The translations under genes and the position numbers were made by a program. A DNA stretch of 64,000 nt from contig JAHILT010000006.1 of the NCBI GenBank assembly GCA_018896875.1, positions 12,605 to 76,604 of the forward strand, given 5' to 3'. The notes below the pieces were generated by a model. It worked only from the letters and a program-made list of their open reading frames with translations. It made no database searches and had not been told where the DNA came from. Origin of the DNA: Patescibacteria group bacterium. Lineage in GTDB: Bacteria > Patescibacteriota > Minisyncoccia > UBA6257 > 02-FULL-45-10c. Shown here piece after piece: positions 11,825 to 52,814 of the stretch (position 1 is its first letter; every line of letters starts with the position of its first letter).

Positions 11825-13327
11825 TTAATCCTTACTTATTAAAGGACCTATTATTGTGTCCTCTATAATATATCCTAAGCTTTTTATTTTGTTTCTCAAT
11901 AGATCGGATTTAGTAAATTGTTTATTTCCTCTGCATAACTCTCTTTCTTGGGCTAATATGGTTATATTTTTAGGTATTTTGTGTGTTTTTAAGGTGGTTC
12001 CTAAAAATATAGATAATTTTTTAATTATAAATTTTTTAATTATAGTAGCTTCGTTTTTGGATAGCGTCCATATTTTAGGTTCTATCGTATTTATTAATTC
12101 AAAAATTGAAGCTATTGCTTTCGGAGTATTAAAGTCATCACTCATAGCAATATCAAAATTGTTTTCTGCTTTTTTAAGAAGATATTCAATTTCAGAGCTG
12201 ACAATTCCTTTTTCCTTTATAAAAGATAGAGAGGTTATTATTTTTTGTAATTTTTTAAGTGTATTAATACCTTGTTCTGCGGATTTTTCGGTATAATTAA
12301 AAGACGAACGATAATGATTGAGATTTATGAGTAGTCTTAGAATTTCTGGAGAATATTTTTTCGTAAAATCTTTTATTGTTGTAAAGTTTTTTAAAGATTT
12401 AGACATTTTTTTTCCATCAATCAAAAGAAATCCTGTATGCATCCATATTTTTACCATTGGTTTTTTACCAGAAGCTGATTCTTGTTGGGTAATTTCTGCT
12501 TCGTGGTGTGGAAATTTTAAATCTACGCCACCACCATGAATATCATATTGTGAACCAAAATAATGTTCGCTAATAGCTGTGTCTTCAATGTGCCATCCTG
12601 GACGACCCCAGCCGAGAGAAGTATACCAAACTGGTTCGTAGTTAATGATTTTCATTGAATTTTTCTTTCTGTGTAAGTCTGCGTTTATATCCCCGCCGAA
12701 GGCGCCGCCAGTAGCGAGCCTCGCCAAGGGCGGGAGGCTCGCCCTTTCGGGCGGCGCGCTAATCTGCGTTTTGGAGAATTTCCATAAAGCAAAATCTCCT
12801 TTGTTTTTTTTGTTTATATCATTATCAATTCTTGATGTTGCATCTTCGGCTTGAGAAGCGGTTCGTTTTGAGAGTTTTCCGTATTCTGGGAAAGTAGAAA
12901 TATCAAAATAATATCCGTCATTTATTTTATAGGCGCATCCTTTTTTAATTAATGTTTGGATTTGTTTTATGATTTGAGGAATGTGTTTACTAGCTTTAGC
13001 GTGTTTAACTGATTTTATATTCAATATTTTTTCAATTTTGTAATACTCTTTTTCAAATTTATTTGCTAATTCAAGAGGACTAATATGTTTTTCTTTAGCT
13101 CTTTCAATTATTTTATCATCAACATCTGTAATATTTTGAAGATAAAAAACATTTATTTTTTTAGATCTCAAATAACGCACAATAGTATCAAAGGCAATAT
13201 AAGTTCTGCCATGTCCAAGATGGGGATTGTCATATACTGTTGGACCGCAAACAAACAAACGTAACGGGCGAGTATTTGGTAGGTTTTCTTTTTTTCCGCT
13301 TAGGCTACTATATATTTTTATAGCCAT
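11825..13327 (-). CDS. cysS: Cysteine--tRNA ligase, carrying a GC-rich in-frame insertion
   Basis: HLGH (HIGH), GRPGWHIE and KMSKS motifs. Confidence 0.9.
   Translation of the reverse strand: MAIKIYSSLSGKKENLPNTRPLRLFVCGPTVYDNPHLGHGRTYIAFDTIVRYLRSKKINVFYLQNITDVDDKIIERAKEKHISPLELANKFEKEYYKIEKILNIKSVKHAKASKHIPQIIKQIQTLIKKGCAYKINDGYYFDISTFPEYGKLSKRTASQAEDATSRIDNDINKKNKGDFALWKFSKTQISAPPERASLPPLARLATGGAFGGDINADLHRKKNSMKIINYEPVWYTSLGWGRPGWHIEDTAISEHYFGSQYDIHGGGVDLKFPHHEAEITQQESASGKKPMVKIWMHTGFLLIDGKKMSKSLKNFTTIKDFTKKYSPEILRLLINLNHYRSSFNYTEKSAEQGINTLKKLQKIITSLSFIKEKGIVSSEIEYLLKKAENNFDIAMSDDFNTPKAIASIFELINTIEPKIWTLSKNEATIIKKFIIKKLSIFLGTTLKTHKIPKNITILAQERELCRGNKQFTKSDLLRNKIKSLGYIIEDTIIGPLISKD
12674..12773. 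repeat. GC-rich palindromic module inside cysS, bounded by TCTGCGTTT direct repeats
   Basis: GC-rich block at 12691-12760 with hairpins CGCC-GAA-GGCG, GCGAGCCTC...GAGGCTCGC and GCCC-TTTC-GGGC. TCTGCGTTT occurs at 12678-12686 and 12763-12771. Confidence 0.8.
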
Positions 13328-37065: not shown

Positions 37066-39519
37066 ATGGGGATGAAAAGAGAAAAAAAATTTGTTTTATG
37101 GTTTGAAGAATTAGGAATTAATGATATTCCTTTGGTTGGCGGAAAAAATGCGGCGATCGGAGAGATGTATTCAAATTTAGTCCCGCTTGGAATTGGTATT
37201 CCAAATGGGTTTGCTTTGACAGCTTATGCTTATAGATTTTTTTTCGAAAAGACTGGACTAGACGATAAGATTAAAGAAGTTTTATCAGATCTTAATACGC
37301 ACGATATTAGAAATTTACGAGCAAGAGGAGCGAGTTGCAGAAAAGCTATTTTGTCTACTGAATTACCTATTGAGATTAAAAAAATATTAGCTCTTACTTA
37401 TAAACAACTAGAAAAAAAATATGGGAAGCGAGTAGATGTGGCTGTTCGTTCTTCTGCTACTGCAGAAGATTTGCCCGATGCTTCTTTCGCTGGACAACAA
37501 GAAACCTTTTTAAATATTTCAGGAGAGGAGGCACTAGAGGAAGCCGTTCATAAGTGTATAGCTTCTTTATTTACAGACAGAGCTATTTCGTATAGAACAG
37601 ATAAAGGTTTTTGTCATTTTGACACAGCGCTTTCTGTTGGTGTTCAAAAAATGGTGCGTTCTGATTTAGCTAGTAGCGGAGTTATTTTTACTCTAGATAC
37701 AGAATCAGGATTTGATAAAGTTGTGGTTATTAATAGTGTCTATGGTTTAGGGGAAATGATTGTTCAAGGACGAGTTATACCAGATGAATTTATAGTTTTT
37801 AAACCTACGCTTGAGAAAGGATTTAAATCTATTATTGCTCAAGATCTAGGAGTTAAGGACAAGAAAATGGTTTACGCTTCTAAAGAAACAAAAGTTGTTG
37901 ATGTCAGCAAAAAAGATCAAGAAGCTTTTTCTTTAACCAATCAAGAAGTTTTAAAATTAGCGGATTGGTCTGTGAAAGTTGAAAAACATTTTTCTGCAAA
38001 AAAAGGAAAATATCAAGCTATGGATATTGAATGGGCGAAGGATGGAAAAACTCAAAAATTATTTATAGTGCAAGCTAGACCAGAAACAGTGCATTCTTCT
38101 AAAGACCCGAATGTTTATCAAGAATTTAAATTAAAAAAGACAGGCAAATTACTGTTTTCTGGAATAGCTGTTGGTAAAAAAATAGCATCAGGAAAAGTGC
38201 GGGTAATCAAAGATACTAAAAATATGTTGCAGTTTAAAAAAGGAGAAATTTTAGTTACTGAAATAACTGATCCTGATTGGGAGCCAATTATGAAAATTGC
38301 TTCAGCTATTATTACTGACAAAGGTGGACGTACTAGTCATGCTGCAATTGTTTCACGTGAATTGGGAATTCCTTGCATTGTTGGATCTGAAAAAGCGACA
38401 AGGCTTTTGAAGGATGGAGTGGAAATTACAGTTGATTGTGCTTCTAGCGAAGAGGGAAGAATTTATAAAGGAAAATTACCTTTTATCATTAATAAGCAAA
38501 GATTAAACAAAATTCCAAAAATAAAGACCAAGGTAATGCTTAATATTGGTTCTCCTGGCGAAGCTTTTAAAAATAGTCATTTGCCTGTAAGCGGAGTTGG
38601 TTTAGGCAGATTGGAGTTTATTATAGCTTCTCATATCGGCATACATCCTAATGCTTTGATTAATTATCAAAAAATTAAAAAACAAAAAAATACTGAAGCA
38701 AGAAAGATTATTAAAGAAATAGACAAAAGAACACCTAGCTATAAAATCAAATCAGATTTTTATATTGATGAATTAGCGGAAGGTATTGCTAAAATTGCTG
38801 CTGCTTTTTGGCCTAATGATGTAATCATTAGATTTTCTGATTTTAAAACTAATGAATATAGTAAACTCGTGGGCGGAAGCTTATATGAACCACAGGAAGA
38901 AAATCCTATGATTGGCTGGAGAGGTGCGTCTCGTTATTATGATCCAAAATTTAAAGAAGCTTTTGGTTTGGAATGTAAGGCCTTTAAAAAAGTCCGTGAA
39001 GTTATGGGGTTGGTTAATATAGTACCTATGGTTCCTTTCTGTAGAACGCCAGAAGAGGGGCAGAAAGTTCTTGGTGTTATGAAAGAGTACGGGCTTTCTC
39101 GTAGTCCGCGTCAGTCAGCGTCTAGTCTGCGTAAGTCTGCGCTTGAGGGACTCAAAGTATATGTGATGTGCGAGATACCATCTAATATTCTTTTAGCTGA
39201 TGAATTTTTGGAAATTTTTGATGGAATGTCTATAGGTTCAAATGATTTAACTCAATTAGTTTTAGGAATGGACAGAGACTCTGGTGTCATTACACATATT
39301 GCTAATGAGAATAACGAAGCGGTGAAAAAAATGGTTGCGGATATTATTACTAAATGTACAGCGAAGAAAAAGTATATTGGTATTTGTGGACAGGCTCCTT
39401 CCGACTATCCTGAATTTACTGCGTTTTTAGTAGAAAAAGGAATAGAAAGTATATCTTTAACTCCTGATACAATTATCAAAAACATTTTAATGATTGCGGA
39501 AAAAGAAAAAGGAAAATAA
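37066..39519 (+). CDS. ppsA: Phosphoenolpyruvate synthase (pyruvate, water dikinase)
   Basis: VAVRSSATAEDLP, phospho-His loop GGRTSHAAIVSRELGIPC, and a C-terminal PEP-utilising TIM domain (GSNDLTQ). Confidence 0.9.
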   Translation: MGMKREKKFVLWFEELGINDIPLVGGKNAAIGEMYSNLVPLGIGIPNGFALTAYAYRFFFEKTGLDDKIKEVLSDLNTHDIRNLRARGASCRKAILSTELPIEIKKILALTYKQLEKKYGKRVDVAVRSSATAEDLPDASFAGQQETFLNISGEEALEEAVHKCIASLFTDRAISYRTDKGFCHFDTALSVGVQKMVRSDLASSGVIFTLDTESGFDKVVVINSVYGLGEMIVQGRVIPDEFIVFKPTLEKGFKSIIAQDLGVKDKKMVYASKETKVVDVSKKDQEAFSLTNQEVLKLADWSVKVEKHFSAKKGKYQAMDIEWAKDGKTQKLFIVQARPETVHSSKDPNVYQEFKLKKTGKLLFSGIAVGKKIASGKVRVIKDTKNMLQFKKGEILVTEITDPDWEPIMKIASAIITDKGGRTSHAAIVSRELGIPCIVGSEKATRLLKDGVEITVDCASSEEGRIYKGKLPFIINKQRLNKIPKIKTKVMLNIGSPGEAFKNSHLPVSGVGLGRLEFIIASHIGIHPNALINYQKIKKQKNTEARKIIKEIDKRTPSYKIKSDFYIDELAEGIAKIAAAFWPNDVIIRFSDFKTNEYSKLVGGSLYEPQEENPMIGWRGASRYYDPKFKEAFGLECKAFKKVREVMGLVNIVPMVPFCRTPEEGQKVLGVMKEYGLSRSPRQSASSLRKSALEGLKVYVMCEIPSNILLADEFLEIFDGMSIGSNDLTQLVLGMDRDSGVITHIANENNEAVKKMVADIITKCTAKKKYIGICGQAPSDYPEFTAFLVEKGIESISLTPDTIIKNILMIAEKEKGK
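39101..39142. repeat. Four tandem 10-nt units AGTC[C/A/T]GCG.. inside ppsA
   Basis: AGTCCGCG at 39103, AGTCAGCG at 39113, AGTCTGCG at 39123 and AGTCTGCG at 39133. Exact 10-nt period. Translated as SPRQSASSLRKSA. Confidence 0.9.
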
Positions 39520-50921: not shown

Positions 50922-52814
50922 TTAATTATTAGGTTTGTTTTCTGAATCTAATTTTTCAATTAATTCTTTCGTAGACATTTCTCCTATCGTTCCTATCCCT
51001 CTTTGTCTAATATTTACTGTTTTATTCTTTTCTTCTTTTTCTCCTACAATTAAGATGTACGGATATTTTTTCATTTCAGCTTCACGAATTTTTTTACCGA
51101 TAGTATTATTAGACAAATCAATCTCTACTCTATACTCTTTTTCAAATAATTGTTTTTGGATTGATTGAGCGTAGTCATTAATATTCTCAGAGATTGGTAA
51201 AATCATTATTTGCGTAGGCGAAAGCCAAAGAGGAAATTTCCCTTCATAATGTTCTATTAATAAACCAATAAATCTTTCAAAGCTTCCAAAGAGAGCCCTA
51301 TGTAATACATAAGGTCTTTCGTTCTCTCCTTTATTATTAATAAAGGTCATATCAAAACGTTTAGGTAAATTGAAATCAAATTGTAGGGTAGAGCATTGCC
51401 ACTCTCGCCCTAATACATCTTTAATTTTAAAGTCTAATTTTGGTCCATAAAAAGCCGCTTCTCCAATTTCTTCTTTAAACTCAAGTTTTTTTTCTTTGGC
51501 TACTTTTCTCAAAATTTTCTCGGTAAATATCCACCCTTTATCATTCCCAGCATATTTAACCTTGTCCTTAGGGTCACGTAAGGAAAGATAAACATTAATA
51601 GAATTAATATCAAAGCCAAAGGACTTAAACATAAATAAAATAAAATCAATAACTTTTTTAAGTTCATCTTCTAATTGGTCTTGTCTACAAATAATATGGG
51701 CATCGTCTTGAGTAAAACCTCGTACTCTAGTTAATCCAGAAAGTTCTCCCTTTTTTTCAAATCTATAAACAGTTCCACATTCAGCCCATCTAAAAGGAAA
51801 TTCTCTGTATGACTTTGGTGTATTTTTATATATTTGAATATGAAACGGACAATTCATTGGTTTGAGCAAGTATTCTTCTGAAGTTTCAGCTTTCTTTTTG
51901 TTCTTTTTTTCTTCCAATGTTTGTCCCGCTTCTAGTGGAGGATACATACTACTACTATAAAATCCCCAGTGACCAGAAGTTTCCCAAAGATTACGATGTC
52001 CAATATGAGGACTCCTCACAAGGTCGTAGCCGTTTTTAAGATGTTCTTTGTACCAAAAAGCTTCAATTATTCTCCAAAGAATTGCGCCCTTAGGATGCCA
52101 AAGTGGCAAGCCAAGTCCTACTTTTTCATCAATATGGAATAAATCTAATTCTTTTCCTAGTTTTCTATGGTCTCTCTTTTTTGCTTCTTCTAAGAGGTGG
52201 AGATAATCTTTTAATTCCTTCTTGCTATCAAAAGCTATTCCATAAATTCTAGTGAGCATAGGATTTTTTTCACTTCCTTTCCAATAAGCTCCAGCTATGT
52301 GAGTAAGCTTAAAAGAATCAAATCCGATTTCTTTGGTATTTTTTACATGAGGGCCCTTACAGAGATCAGTAAAAATGTCTCCGGTATCATAAATATGAAT
52401 AGGAGCTTTTTCTTTTTGTAATTCTTTAATAAGTTCTAATTTAAATTTTTGATTACTAAATATTTTTTTAGCTTTTAACGGAGTGATTTTTTCGCTTTTA
52501 AAATCTATTCTTTTATTAATAAAAGAACGCATTTCTTTTTCCAGCATCGGCAAATCTAATTCGCCGATCGCTGACCCCGCTGACTTTGGCTGACCCCGCT
52601 GACTTATTTTTTGTCCGCGAAGTCCGCTTTTGTCCGCGGAGTCTGCACTAAAGAGGAAGTCATAATAAAAACCGTTTTCTATAGTTGGTCCTATACCTAA
52701 TTTTGTTTTAGGATATTTTTTGAGAACAGCCGCAGCCAAAAGATGGGCTAGCGAATGTCTAGCCTTATCTATACTAGCTTGTTTTAATTCTTCTGAATTG
52801 GTTTGTTTGCTCAT
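50922..52814 (-). CDS. thrS: Threonine--tRNA ligase, carrying a ~30-aa repeat-derived insertion
   Basis: RHSLAHLLA editing-domain motif, class II core (FRWAECGTVYRFE, GFTQDDAH, HRALFGSFERF), anticodon-binding C-terminus. Confidence 0.92.
   Translation of the reverse strand: MSKQTNSEELKQASIDKARHSLAHLLAAAVLKKYPKTKLGIGPTIENGFYYDFLFSADSADKSGLRGQKISQRGQPKSAGSAIGELDLPMLEKEMRSFINKRIDFKSEKITPLKAKKIFSNQKFKLELIKELQKEKAPIHIYDTGDIFTDLCKGPHVKNTKEIGFDSFKLTHIAGAYWKGSEKNPMLTRIYGIAFDSKKELKDYLHLLEEAKKRDHRKLGKELDLFHIDEKVGLGLPLWHPKGAILWRIIEAFWYKEHLKNGYDLVRSPHIGHRNLWETSGHWGFYSSSMYPPLEAGQTLEEKKNKKKAETSEEYLLKPMNCPFHIQIYKNTPKSYREFPFRWAECGTVYRFEKKGELSGLTRVRGFTQDDAHIICRQDQLEDELKKVIDFILFMFKSFGFDINSINVYLSLRDPKDKVKYAGNDKGWIFTEKILRKVAKEKKLEFKEEIGEAAFYGPKLDFKIKDVLGREWQCSTLQFDFNLPKRFDMTFINNKGENERPYVLHRALFGSFERFIGLLIEHYEGKFPLWLSPTQIMILPISENINDYAQSIQKQLFEKEYRVEIDLSNNTIGKKIREAEMKKYPYILIVGEKEEKNKTVNIRQRGIGTIGEMSTKELIEKLDSENKPNN
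52566..52648. repeat. GC-rich composite repeat inside thrS
   Basis: GCTGACCCCGCTGACTT x2 (52570-52586 and 52589-52605), then GTCCGCG, AGTCCGC, GTCCGCG and AGTCTGC units at 52613-52646. Confidence 0.9.

Follow-up and report, generated by a model that had tools for sequence, protein, structure and literature searches.

Why does the only threonyl-tRNA synthetase (ThrRS) gene of a small-genomed bacterium carry a block of GC-rich repeats within its coding sequence, and how did that block get there? The gene, thrS (positions 50922–52814, minus strand), lies in a window of 64,000 nucleotides (nt) from contig JAHILT010000006.1 of assembly GCA_018896875.1, a Patescibacteria genome of 790 kb in 89 contigs that we label G000. 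An earlier note on this DNA had described the block as a composite repeat and had argued that one nucleotide family is tolerated in both orientations within essential genes, which is hard to explain by selection on the protein. The analysis presented here supports that argument and suggests an origin. The thrS insert is probably a cargo-less hairpin copy of a Patescibacteria family of selfish elements, the full form of which carries a GxxExxY nuclease, and it was probably imported by transfer together with a flank of the donor gene.

A hairpin element in frame within thrS

thrS is a continuous open reading frame (ORF) of 630 amino acids on an AT-rich contig (31.4% G+C) and is the single thrS match in the G000 genome. 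Its closest ThrRS homologues in public records are labelled Patescibacteria. Pfam matches in the protein are restricted to tRNA_SAD, tRNA-synt_2b and HGTP_anticodon. The alignment with Staphylococcus aureus ThrRS (1nyq_A, residues 69–621) starts at residue 69, and the N-terminal TGS domain is therefore absent. The editing motif HxxxH / CxxxH is intact, and residues H20, H24, D150, C152 and H156 are invariant across 45 ThrRS sequences.

We delimited the insert by codon alignment with the empty allele of a relative, P0001, and with five genes from the same genus; it also appears as a gap in a protein alignment of 29 relatives. The insert consists of 25 in-frame codons (GCA GAC ... GGG TCA; 52572–52646, minus strand), with boundaries that are uncertain by a few nucleotides. 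Its size is 24–25 residues (72–75 nt) rather than the roughly 30 first proposed, and the net gain over relatives is 24 codons. The inserted peptide, SADSADKSGLRGQKISQRGQPKSAGSA, sits between GFYYDFLF and IGELDLPMLEKEM, and both ORF translation and alignment bear out the position originally described, between GFYYDF and the LPMLEKEM helix. G+C content over the element is 0.53–0.55 in 80-nt windows, compared with 0.19–0.41 elsewhere in the gene.

On the plus strand, the 17-mer GCTGACCCCGCTGACTT occurs exactly twice (52570–52586 and 52589–52605), with the period of 19 nt that had been noted, and 19 nt are exactly duplicated within the element. With up to three mismatches tolerated, the 17-mer had no match in any of 100 dinucleotide shuffles. 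The shorter units reported downstream were all located within 52613–52646 (GTCCGCG at 52613 and 52632, AGTCCGC at 52621–52627 and AGTCTGC at 52640–52646), separated from the 17-mers by a T-rich 9-mer. The 17-mers had been listed as a separate kind of unit, but each consists of two GCTGAC units, the reverse complement of the downstream GTCNGC. As GCTGAC and GTCAGC are reverse complements, the whole element comprises four plus four units in inverted order and forms one imperfect hairpin.

Read in the sense of the mRNA, the 5′ arm holds four GCNGAC units (GCAGAC TCC GCGGAC AAAA GCGGAC TTC GCGGAC; spacing 9/10/9 nt; 52613–52646), the loop AAAAAATAA is 9 nt long (52604–52612), and the 3′ arm holds four GTCAGC units (GTCAGC GGG GTCAGC CAAA GTCAGC GGG GTCAGC; 52570–52603) that correspond to the two exact plus-strand 17-mers. 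The predicted RNA fold has a free energy of -40.1 kcal/mol (z = -4.16; none of 200 shuffles was as stable), or -52 kcal/mol (z = -6.9) when an adjoining hairpin in the flank is included. The unpaired position in the hairpin is the variable N of each unit. The family had been thought to be read antisense in thrS; the gene is indeed on the minus strand, but an element that is palindromic and contains both orientations has no simple antisense reading.

An AlphaFold2 model of the G000 ThrRS has a mean predicted local distance difference test score (pLDDT) of 89.1, with values below 50 confined to residues 61–79, in the insert, and to the first five residues. Mapped onto this model, as had been suggested, the insert falls between strand 48–54 (GFYYDFL) and helix 85–100. 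The model predicts that it forms a disordered loop beside the editing domain.

An empty site in relatives and an imported tract

The insert is missing from all 28 of the Genome Taxonomy Database (GTDB) relatives compared, among them five genomes of the same genus. The closest protein in a collection of 5.8 billion is P0001 (91% amino acid and 88% nucleotide identity), which is insert-less and has the canonical FLLPKPISDSDLAGLEKEM. On a tree of ThrRS proteins, G000 is the sole occupied member of a clade of nine rows with 100% support. Judged by this empty site in close relatives, the element appears to be a recent gain in the G000 lineage. In relatives, the empty site reads ATC AGC GAY GCN GAY, which resembles the units in both orientations ([ATCAGC]GAT<GCCGAC>). 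This resemblance may bear on targeting, or it may be chance.

The same site is occupied in a ThrRS gene that is far removed from that of G000. P0002 (locus L069, on a contig from the Joint Genome Institute (JGI)) ranks 100th of 108 in distance from the G000 protein, at 1.64 substitutions per site, and the two genes are 60.6% identical in nucleotide sequence overall. The P0002 insert reads ...AQTNADESGHRGQKLSQRGQLKSAGSAIGELDLPMLEKEM. Codon alignment and a window-identity test revealed a tract (52530–52628, minus strand) in which the two genes are identical at 96 of 99 nt (97%), and which spans the inner left arm, the loop, the right arm and the 3′ flank. In the control pair P0001–P0002, the best 99-nt window reaches 81%. 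All three differences between the G000 and P0002 elements change an amino acid.

The tract extends into sequence of host type. A flank of 27 nt on the 3′ side (ATC GGC GAA TTA GAT TTG CCG ATG CTG, encoding IGELDLPML; 52542–52568, minus strand) is identical to that of P0002 and differs from P0001 at 14 of 27 positions. Other ThrRS clades, that of P0016 among them, typically have a DLPxL flank, whereas the clade of G000 has DLA[GD]L; downstream of EKEM, the G000 gene reverts to P0001-type sequence. We read the 27-nt flank as co-converted host DNA. The outer left arm differs between G000 and P0002, and the 5′ end of the tract therefore lies within the element. At the level of sequence, the tract matches the footprint expected of gene conversion with a co-converted flank; on this view the donor would have belonged to the P0002/P0016 clade or stood close to it. 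We rejected an assembly chimera: both gene flanks are of G000 type, G000 alone has this outer left arm, and the sister copy is on an independent JGI contig.

We also scanned genome and metagenome contigs for the exact 17-mer AAGTCAGCGGGGTCAGC. This pattern is too short, and nearly all matches were chance occurrences in GC-rich genomes; the relevant ones came solely from the P0002 contig (L273) and from an unrelated array of 13 GCTGACTTTT units (L189). The latter, a chance find of the scan, is an intergenic array of about 13 same-direction GCTGACT(T/A)TT units at L189:215–345, on a contig of 48% G+C from another organism.

Could the element instead have grown in place, by slippage or fold-back synthesis from the unit-like native codons ATC AGC GAY GCN GAY, with no horizontal movement? 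The unit-like empty site in relatives, the exact 19-nt duplication within the element and variation in unit number elsewhere (the ThrRS inserts P0060 and P0063 are one 12-nt unit apart) are all in keeping with such growth. Yet by our own estimate a loose [AG]TCNG[CT] pattern is expected by chance in about a quarter of 30-nt windows, and growth in place does not account for an element and flank 97% identical to those of an otherwise 60.6%-identical gene while the nearest relative is empty and has the flank typical of its clade. The distribution of the unit, described next, also speaks against it, and we consider this explanation improbable.

A unit family open in the host frame

The strict unit AGTCNGCG occurs 51 times in G000 against 18 expected (15 for the reversed control), and units cluster into 14 arrays in 11 genes. 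Three arrays are in LepA, two in RecG, and one each in ThrRS, IF-2 (infB), GAPDH (gap), GatA, PpsA, a DUF763-like protein, a pilin leader, a large surface protein and a 108-amino-acid ORF. The ppsA array, which had been proposed to belong to the same family, was found at 39101–39142 on the plus strand; it has four AGTCNGCG units in a single direction, read as SPRQSASSLRKSA, and shares this unit with the thrS element. In the sense of the host genes, GCNGAC occurs 31 times and GTCNGC 19 times, with units in every one of the three codon phases, which confirms that the family is tolerated in both orientations. The encoded peptides are TQTNAD-like or RKSA/SPR/QSA-like. Where an array mixes orientations, the order is GCNGAC...GTCNGC (four of four), as it also is around the lepA cassette described below.

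Beyond G000, tandem units (AGTCNGCG-N1-3-AGTCNGCG; eight matches in G000) are found in none of 22 other genomes of its family. The presence of the unit in 11 unrelated genes of one genome and in 0 of these 22 is not what growth in place at thrS would produce. Phylum-wide, 11 of 400 genomes have tandem matches (19, compared with 8 for the reversed control), several of which are again hairpin arrays. We found no long consensus of the kind seen in Rickettsia palindromic elements (RPEs): there is no further copy of the 17-mer in the window, copies share only the 8-nt unit, and their peptides differ. The unit was also considered and rejected as a DNA-uptake sequence, as it is just about threefold enriched and forms about 14 clusters rather than dispersed singles.

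All family arrays of G000 lie within long ORFs. Strand and frame statistics, which the earlier note had called for, show that the host frame is open through 14 of 14 arrays, compared with 15 of 70 other frames (5 of 14 in the +1 frame, none of 14 in the +2 frame and 10 of 42 antisense). At a chance of about 0.21 that a non-host frame is open, our own arithmetic puts the probability of 14 of 14 at the order of 1e-10. The host ORFs were found for being long, yet conserved genes run past both ends of the arrays. The openness of every array suggests that ribosomes read through them, and disfavours excision or bypassing.

This bears on whether the thrS segment is removed or skipped, by excision of an mRNA hairpin (as by RNase III with rRNA intervening sequences), by translational bypassing or by protein splicing. 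The RNA hairpin is long and stable, as such excision might lead one to expect, and hairpin inserts bearing ORFs in rRNA genes do get excised. Inserts in the rRNA of the Candidate Phyla Radiation (CPR) have been described (PMC11270868). Open host frames would be unlikely to be maintained through all 14 arrays, with other frames mostly closed, if the segments were removed, and the 152-codon lepA cassette is open as well. The Pfam scan of ThrRS found no intein or Hint splicing domain, and the insert is merely 25 amino acids long. A search against Rfam returned no family above threshold (sole match RAGATH-25, 17.7 bits; gathering score 49). Bypassing elements need a stop codon after the take-off codon, and there is none here. 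On the frame statistics and these missing motifs we rejected bypassing, an intein and an intron for the thrS insert; removal or skipping in any form is very improbable, and we infer that the insert is translated.

Further repeats were noted in G000. One octamer, CTAGTGGC, was counted 73 times where about 6 copies are expected; it forms 41 clusters, and many of these are tandem or inverted arrays (for example C35:12611–12698, C38:4150–4209 and C65:1457–1839); one pair flanks a PF05635 gene. In cysS (minus strand; window positions 12669–12780), a GC-rich palindromic module of CysRS lies between two family units of the same direction, AAGTCTGCG ... TAATCTGCG, and appears as one repeat nested in the array of another. 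A different translated module, P-T-L-[KT]-D-E-Y-G / TDEYG / NDKYG, adjoins TQTNAD arrays in IF-2 and RecG and is tandem in a 108-amino-acid ORF (C24:7360–7450 in infB, C35:11600–11900 in recG and C45:175–597). RecG of G000 also has a low-complexity insert of about 130 amino acids.

An insertion hotspot across ThrRS

The thrS site is occupied repeatedly. Of the 108 ThrRS proteins on the tree, 24 (about 22%) carry an insert of at least seven amino acids at this position, in at least 15 different sequences. The tree requires 13 or more gains or losses at the site, and 13 are already required by the well-supported branches. At the DNA level, these inserts include hairpins of four plus four ATCAGC units (P0060), other hairpins (P0019) and one-directional GCNGAT arrays (P0016 and P0025). 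The peptides differ between lineages in sequence, length and frame, and the DNA unit persists. Faster evolution of the insert than of its ThrRS host was considered, and pairwise identities do not support it. A further hotspot is located directly before FVDLCKGPHV, where P0002, P0016 and P0059 carry the inserts KKSPRSPLSSAKSA, EIPRQSASSPRKSA and LAQYQHKSA, respectively; G000 is empty there.

Is the insert an adaptive feature of the protein that selection on the peptide maintains, for example as a new, flexible loop with an influence on editing or on tRNA binding? Its site adjoins strand GFYYD of the editing domain, inserts are found there in about 22% of related ThrRS, and in some pairs they are conserved about as well as their hosts. 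Nevertheless, what persists among lineages is the DNA unit and not the peptide. The roughly 24 insert-bearing ThrRS have no conserved peptide, and same-site inserts in distant ThrRS differ in frame as well as in length; a relative with 91% identity has no insert at all. In addition, every difference between the G000 and P0002 elements alters an amino acid, the model predicts disorder, and the same DNA is found in ten other unrelated genes. These observations make an adaptive loop the least probable of the explanations considered, and they uphold the view that selection on the protein hardly explains the family.

Arrays around in-frame GxxExxY domains

Outside the window, units of this family surround a coding element. 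lepA of G000 (C17:5265–7610, minus strand) is an ORF of 778 amino acids with a cassette at about C17:6940–7410. Within it, the inverted arrays RRPTQTETQTNAD and ESASSPRESA bracket a complete GxxExxY domain (TIGR04256 positions 1–116 of 116, E = 2.7e-30), which lies in the host reading frame, between motifs G2 and G3, with its PD...E-x-K residues intact. The cassette comprises 152 codons and is open throughout. lepA also has a cargo-less hairpin array before WALPGYKEP. In-frame GxxExxY cassettes like that of G000 lepA were absent from the same-genus genomes. A further GxxExxY gene, free-standing and with AT-rich arms, is located directly downstream of lepA (C17:4843–5181).

A chimeric query composed of ThrRS and the cassette listed 110 proteins with a PF13366 domain, 48–73% identical to that of G000 LepA. 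Among the matches listed, about 100 are LepA or RecG; the other nine are two SecA, LeuRS, TsaD and five with a glycosyltransferase or no further listed domain. The layout [..TQTETRTNAE]-LLYKDLTYKIRG...YDTAR-[PRESASSPRESA] was seen in 10 of 10 sequences read, and positions in LepA and RecG are constant. RecG of G025 (locus L055) and the RecG proteins P0133 and P0136 have the full cassette exactly where RecG of G000 has the cargo-less RGLTQTKTQTNADRISGKSA. Nuclease domains cluster by host gene (for RecG, 8 changes compared with 36.7 in shuffles), on a tree that is poorly resolved; this is the pattern that site-specific lineages would give.

No ThrRS with a GxxExxY (PF13366) domain was present among the matches to the chimeric query. 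Given this result and a loop of 9 nt, the thrS copy is the cargo-less form, and its link to the nuclease rests on the common units, the common architecture and the precedent in RecG. From these we infer that the hairpin derives from, or depends on, the nuclease cassettes.

PF13366 is listed as having an unknown function (PMC3424549). In the literature that we searched, there was no description of in-frame GxxExxY cassettes or of their arrays. Because the cassette insert causes systematic mis-annotation, several full-length LepA and RecG proteins that carry it are named just 'GxxExxY protein' in NCBI and JGI records. In two other genomes (G010 and G008; loci L059 and L060), the peptide deformylase gene def has a GxxExxY cassette fused to its 3′ end in frame; the def ORF is lengthened by the left array and the nuclease, and the right array follows the stop codon. 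A similar arrangement surrounds PF05635 genes ('23S rRNA IVS protein', a four-helix bundle): most of those inspected in six Patescibacteria genomes are located between inverted arrays of 7–10-nt units that vary from copy to copy (TAGCCAC, AAGATTT, TAGGGAC, GGAAATA...; G000 C65:1500–1817, C2:31390–31704 and C17:12060–12365; loci L044–L054). The proposal that each nuclease has one unit, for all GxxExxY genes, was only partly borne out: G133, G230 and G290 have AGTCNGCG arrays, and their free-standing GxxExxY genes are flanked by AT-rich units. The association with AGTCNGCG-type arrays is restricted to the in-frame LLYKDLTYKIRG subfamily of GxxExxY.

Several points weigh against the reading of the thrS insert as an imported, cargo-less copy of a nuclease-bearing family. 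No target-site duplication is visible at the element junctions in comparison with the empty allele of P0001. The 27-nt flank folds into a 10-bp hairpin of its own and could belong to the element itself instead of being co-converted host DNA. Inserts at the hotspot do not evolve faster than their hosts (ThrRS pairs that are about 63–65% identical have inserts that are 58–86% identical), and conservation similar to that of the host does not match simple neutral decay, nor does it point to an obvious function of the peptide. Cargo may never have been present in the hairpins at the thrS site. Finally, other GxxExxY copies, including the further one of G000, and PF05635 genes are flanked by other, mostly AT-rich units, and the arrays could thus serve as a general vehicle or landing pad instead of deriving from one nuclease.

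This last point opens an alternative in which mobility or recombination is primarily a property of the inverted arrays, small ORFs (GxxExxY or PF05635) land in their loops later, and the thrS element is complete rather than decayed. Two unrelated protein families between inverted short-unit arrays, the lack of a cargo-bearing ThrRS among the matches and a ratio of about 13 cargo-less arrays to 1 cassette in G000 would all fit. However, in many host genes the arrays of AGTCNGCG type accompany a single GxxExxY subfamily (LLYKDLTYKIRG...), and RecG has full and cargo-less forms at a single site, the latter with the left array intact and the right truncated, as internal deletion predicts. We know of no enzyme able to move bare arrays, and a search for the Y1/RAYT transposase (PF01797) found none in G000 while finding it in six control genomes. 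We therefore regard arrays as the primary module as unlikely, and favour descent of the thrS hairpin from the nuclease-bearing family.

Discussion

If the thrS insert is such a copy, its history may have run as follows. The family would be built from a unit of 9–10 nt, (A)GTCNGCG, in inverted arrays ordered GCNGAC...GTCNGC. In the full-length form, these arrays would surround a small GxxExxY (PD-(D/E)XK) ORF lacking its own start and stop codons, and a conserved housekeeping protein would carry the whole cassette in frame, in one of its surface loops, as LepA of G000 appears to do. In thrS, the arms alone would be left, or the arms alone would ever have arrived. Entry into the lineage would be recent, by way of horizontally transferred DNA that recombined at the homologous site in thrS, and about 27 nt of donor flank would have been carried along as a homing-like co-conversion tract. 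A break made by the nuclease would drive the spread of the element. As the units encode small hydrophilic residues, the product would be a disordered loop near the editing domain. An insert that preserves the frame, is free of stops in the host frame and forms a disordered loop would leave the cell's only thrS functional, and the element would thereby be retained.

We advance a broader version of this reading tentatively, and with less than even confidence: Patescibacteria may hold a phylum-wide class of gene-resident selfish elements. In the autonomous form, an in-frame PD-(D/E)XK (GxxExxY) nuclease between inverted arrays of a short cognate unit would never be removed, and the thrS insert would be a non-autonomous form that passes from species to species by break-induced gene conversion, at one fixed site of a conserved gene. 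Such cassettes would never be removed because the arrays encode flexible linkers.

Several known systems resemble the thrS element in part. RPEs, as outlined in a summary of Ogata et al. 2000 (PMC10969869), are about 100–150 bp long and have a family consensus and a conserved encoded peptide. In that outline they share with the thrS element a short palindromic form, in-frame insertion into unrelated housekeeping genes and a small AT-rich genome, and both can be read as translated extra surface loops, selfish DNA that survives where it is harmless to the protein (PMC10969869). Unlike RPEs, the thrS family consists of arrays of degenerate 9–10-nt units with no long consensus, in three phases and both orientations, and the thrS element shows site-specific recurrence and a co-converted flank. 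To our knowledge, RPEs have no nuclease-bearing full-length form.

Homing elements provide the second comparison. [quoted passage not shown] Homing endonuclease genes in inteins and introns, ShiLan and the thrS element all occupy the same conserved-gene site in divergent hosts, are patchy and empty in close relatives, and have a flank that travels with them; like the thrS element, ShiLan is read through in frame without a splicing domain (PMC11855218). The same-site recurrence and the 27-nt travelling flank are what a homing footprint would be expected to look like. Unlike homing elements, the thrS copy encodes no nuclease, and its likeness to them is one of sequence footprint. The full form of the family has a PD-(D/E)XK GxxExxY domain in the host frame, whereas that of ShiLan is an out-of-frame HNH, and the tandem-unit inverted arrays that bracket the family nuclease are not a feature of inteins, introns or ShiLan.

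[quoted passage not shown] REPs, however, are extragenic, and arrays of the thrS family are almost all within genes and in frame. The inverted arms of MITEs are present in the thrS element, but the sole related coding element carries a PD-(D/E)XK nuclease and not a known transposase, and there is no IS-type partner that encodes one. Intervening sequences of 23S rRNA (PF05635) resemble the cassette class in placing a small ORF in a long hairpin loop within an essential gene, and PF05635 genes in G000 and five other Patescibacteria genomes have inverted short-unit arrays of the same architecture. Those intervening sequences are cut from the RNA, whereas inserts of the thrS family are in protein genes and constrained to be open in frame; units and cargo differ too. 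Overall, the thrS element appears to be most like RPEs in function and most like homing elements in population behaviour. Selfish palindromic DNA within genes is already known, and we classify the element as a variant of it with homing-like spread.

The thrS element suggests that an essential, single-copy aminoacyl-tRNA synthetase gene can host mobile DNA that is neither spliced nor harmful, and that such DNA can pass from one lineage of uncultured, ultra-small bacteria to a distant other. Sequence-level evidence that a cargo-less copy moved comes from the imported tract and its donor flank. If the broader reading is correct, the cassettes would represent a third route, beside introns and inteins, by which a nuclease gene can reside in essential genes, and the 99-nt tract, co-converted flank included, would be the first trace of this kind of event left by a cargo-less copy. 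The family would account for GC-rich 'low-complexity' loops in many CPR housekeeping proteins and offers a testable role for the GxxExxY / PF13366 family. Its arrays may also serve as natural markers for gene flow and natural transformation in Patescibacteria, and as a catalogue of insertion-tolerant loops in core enzymes that would be useful for protein engineering.

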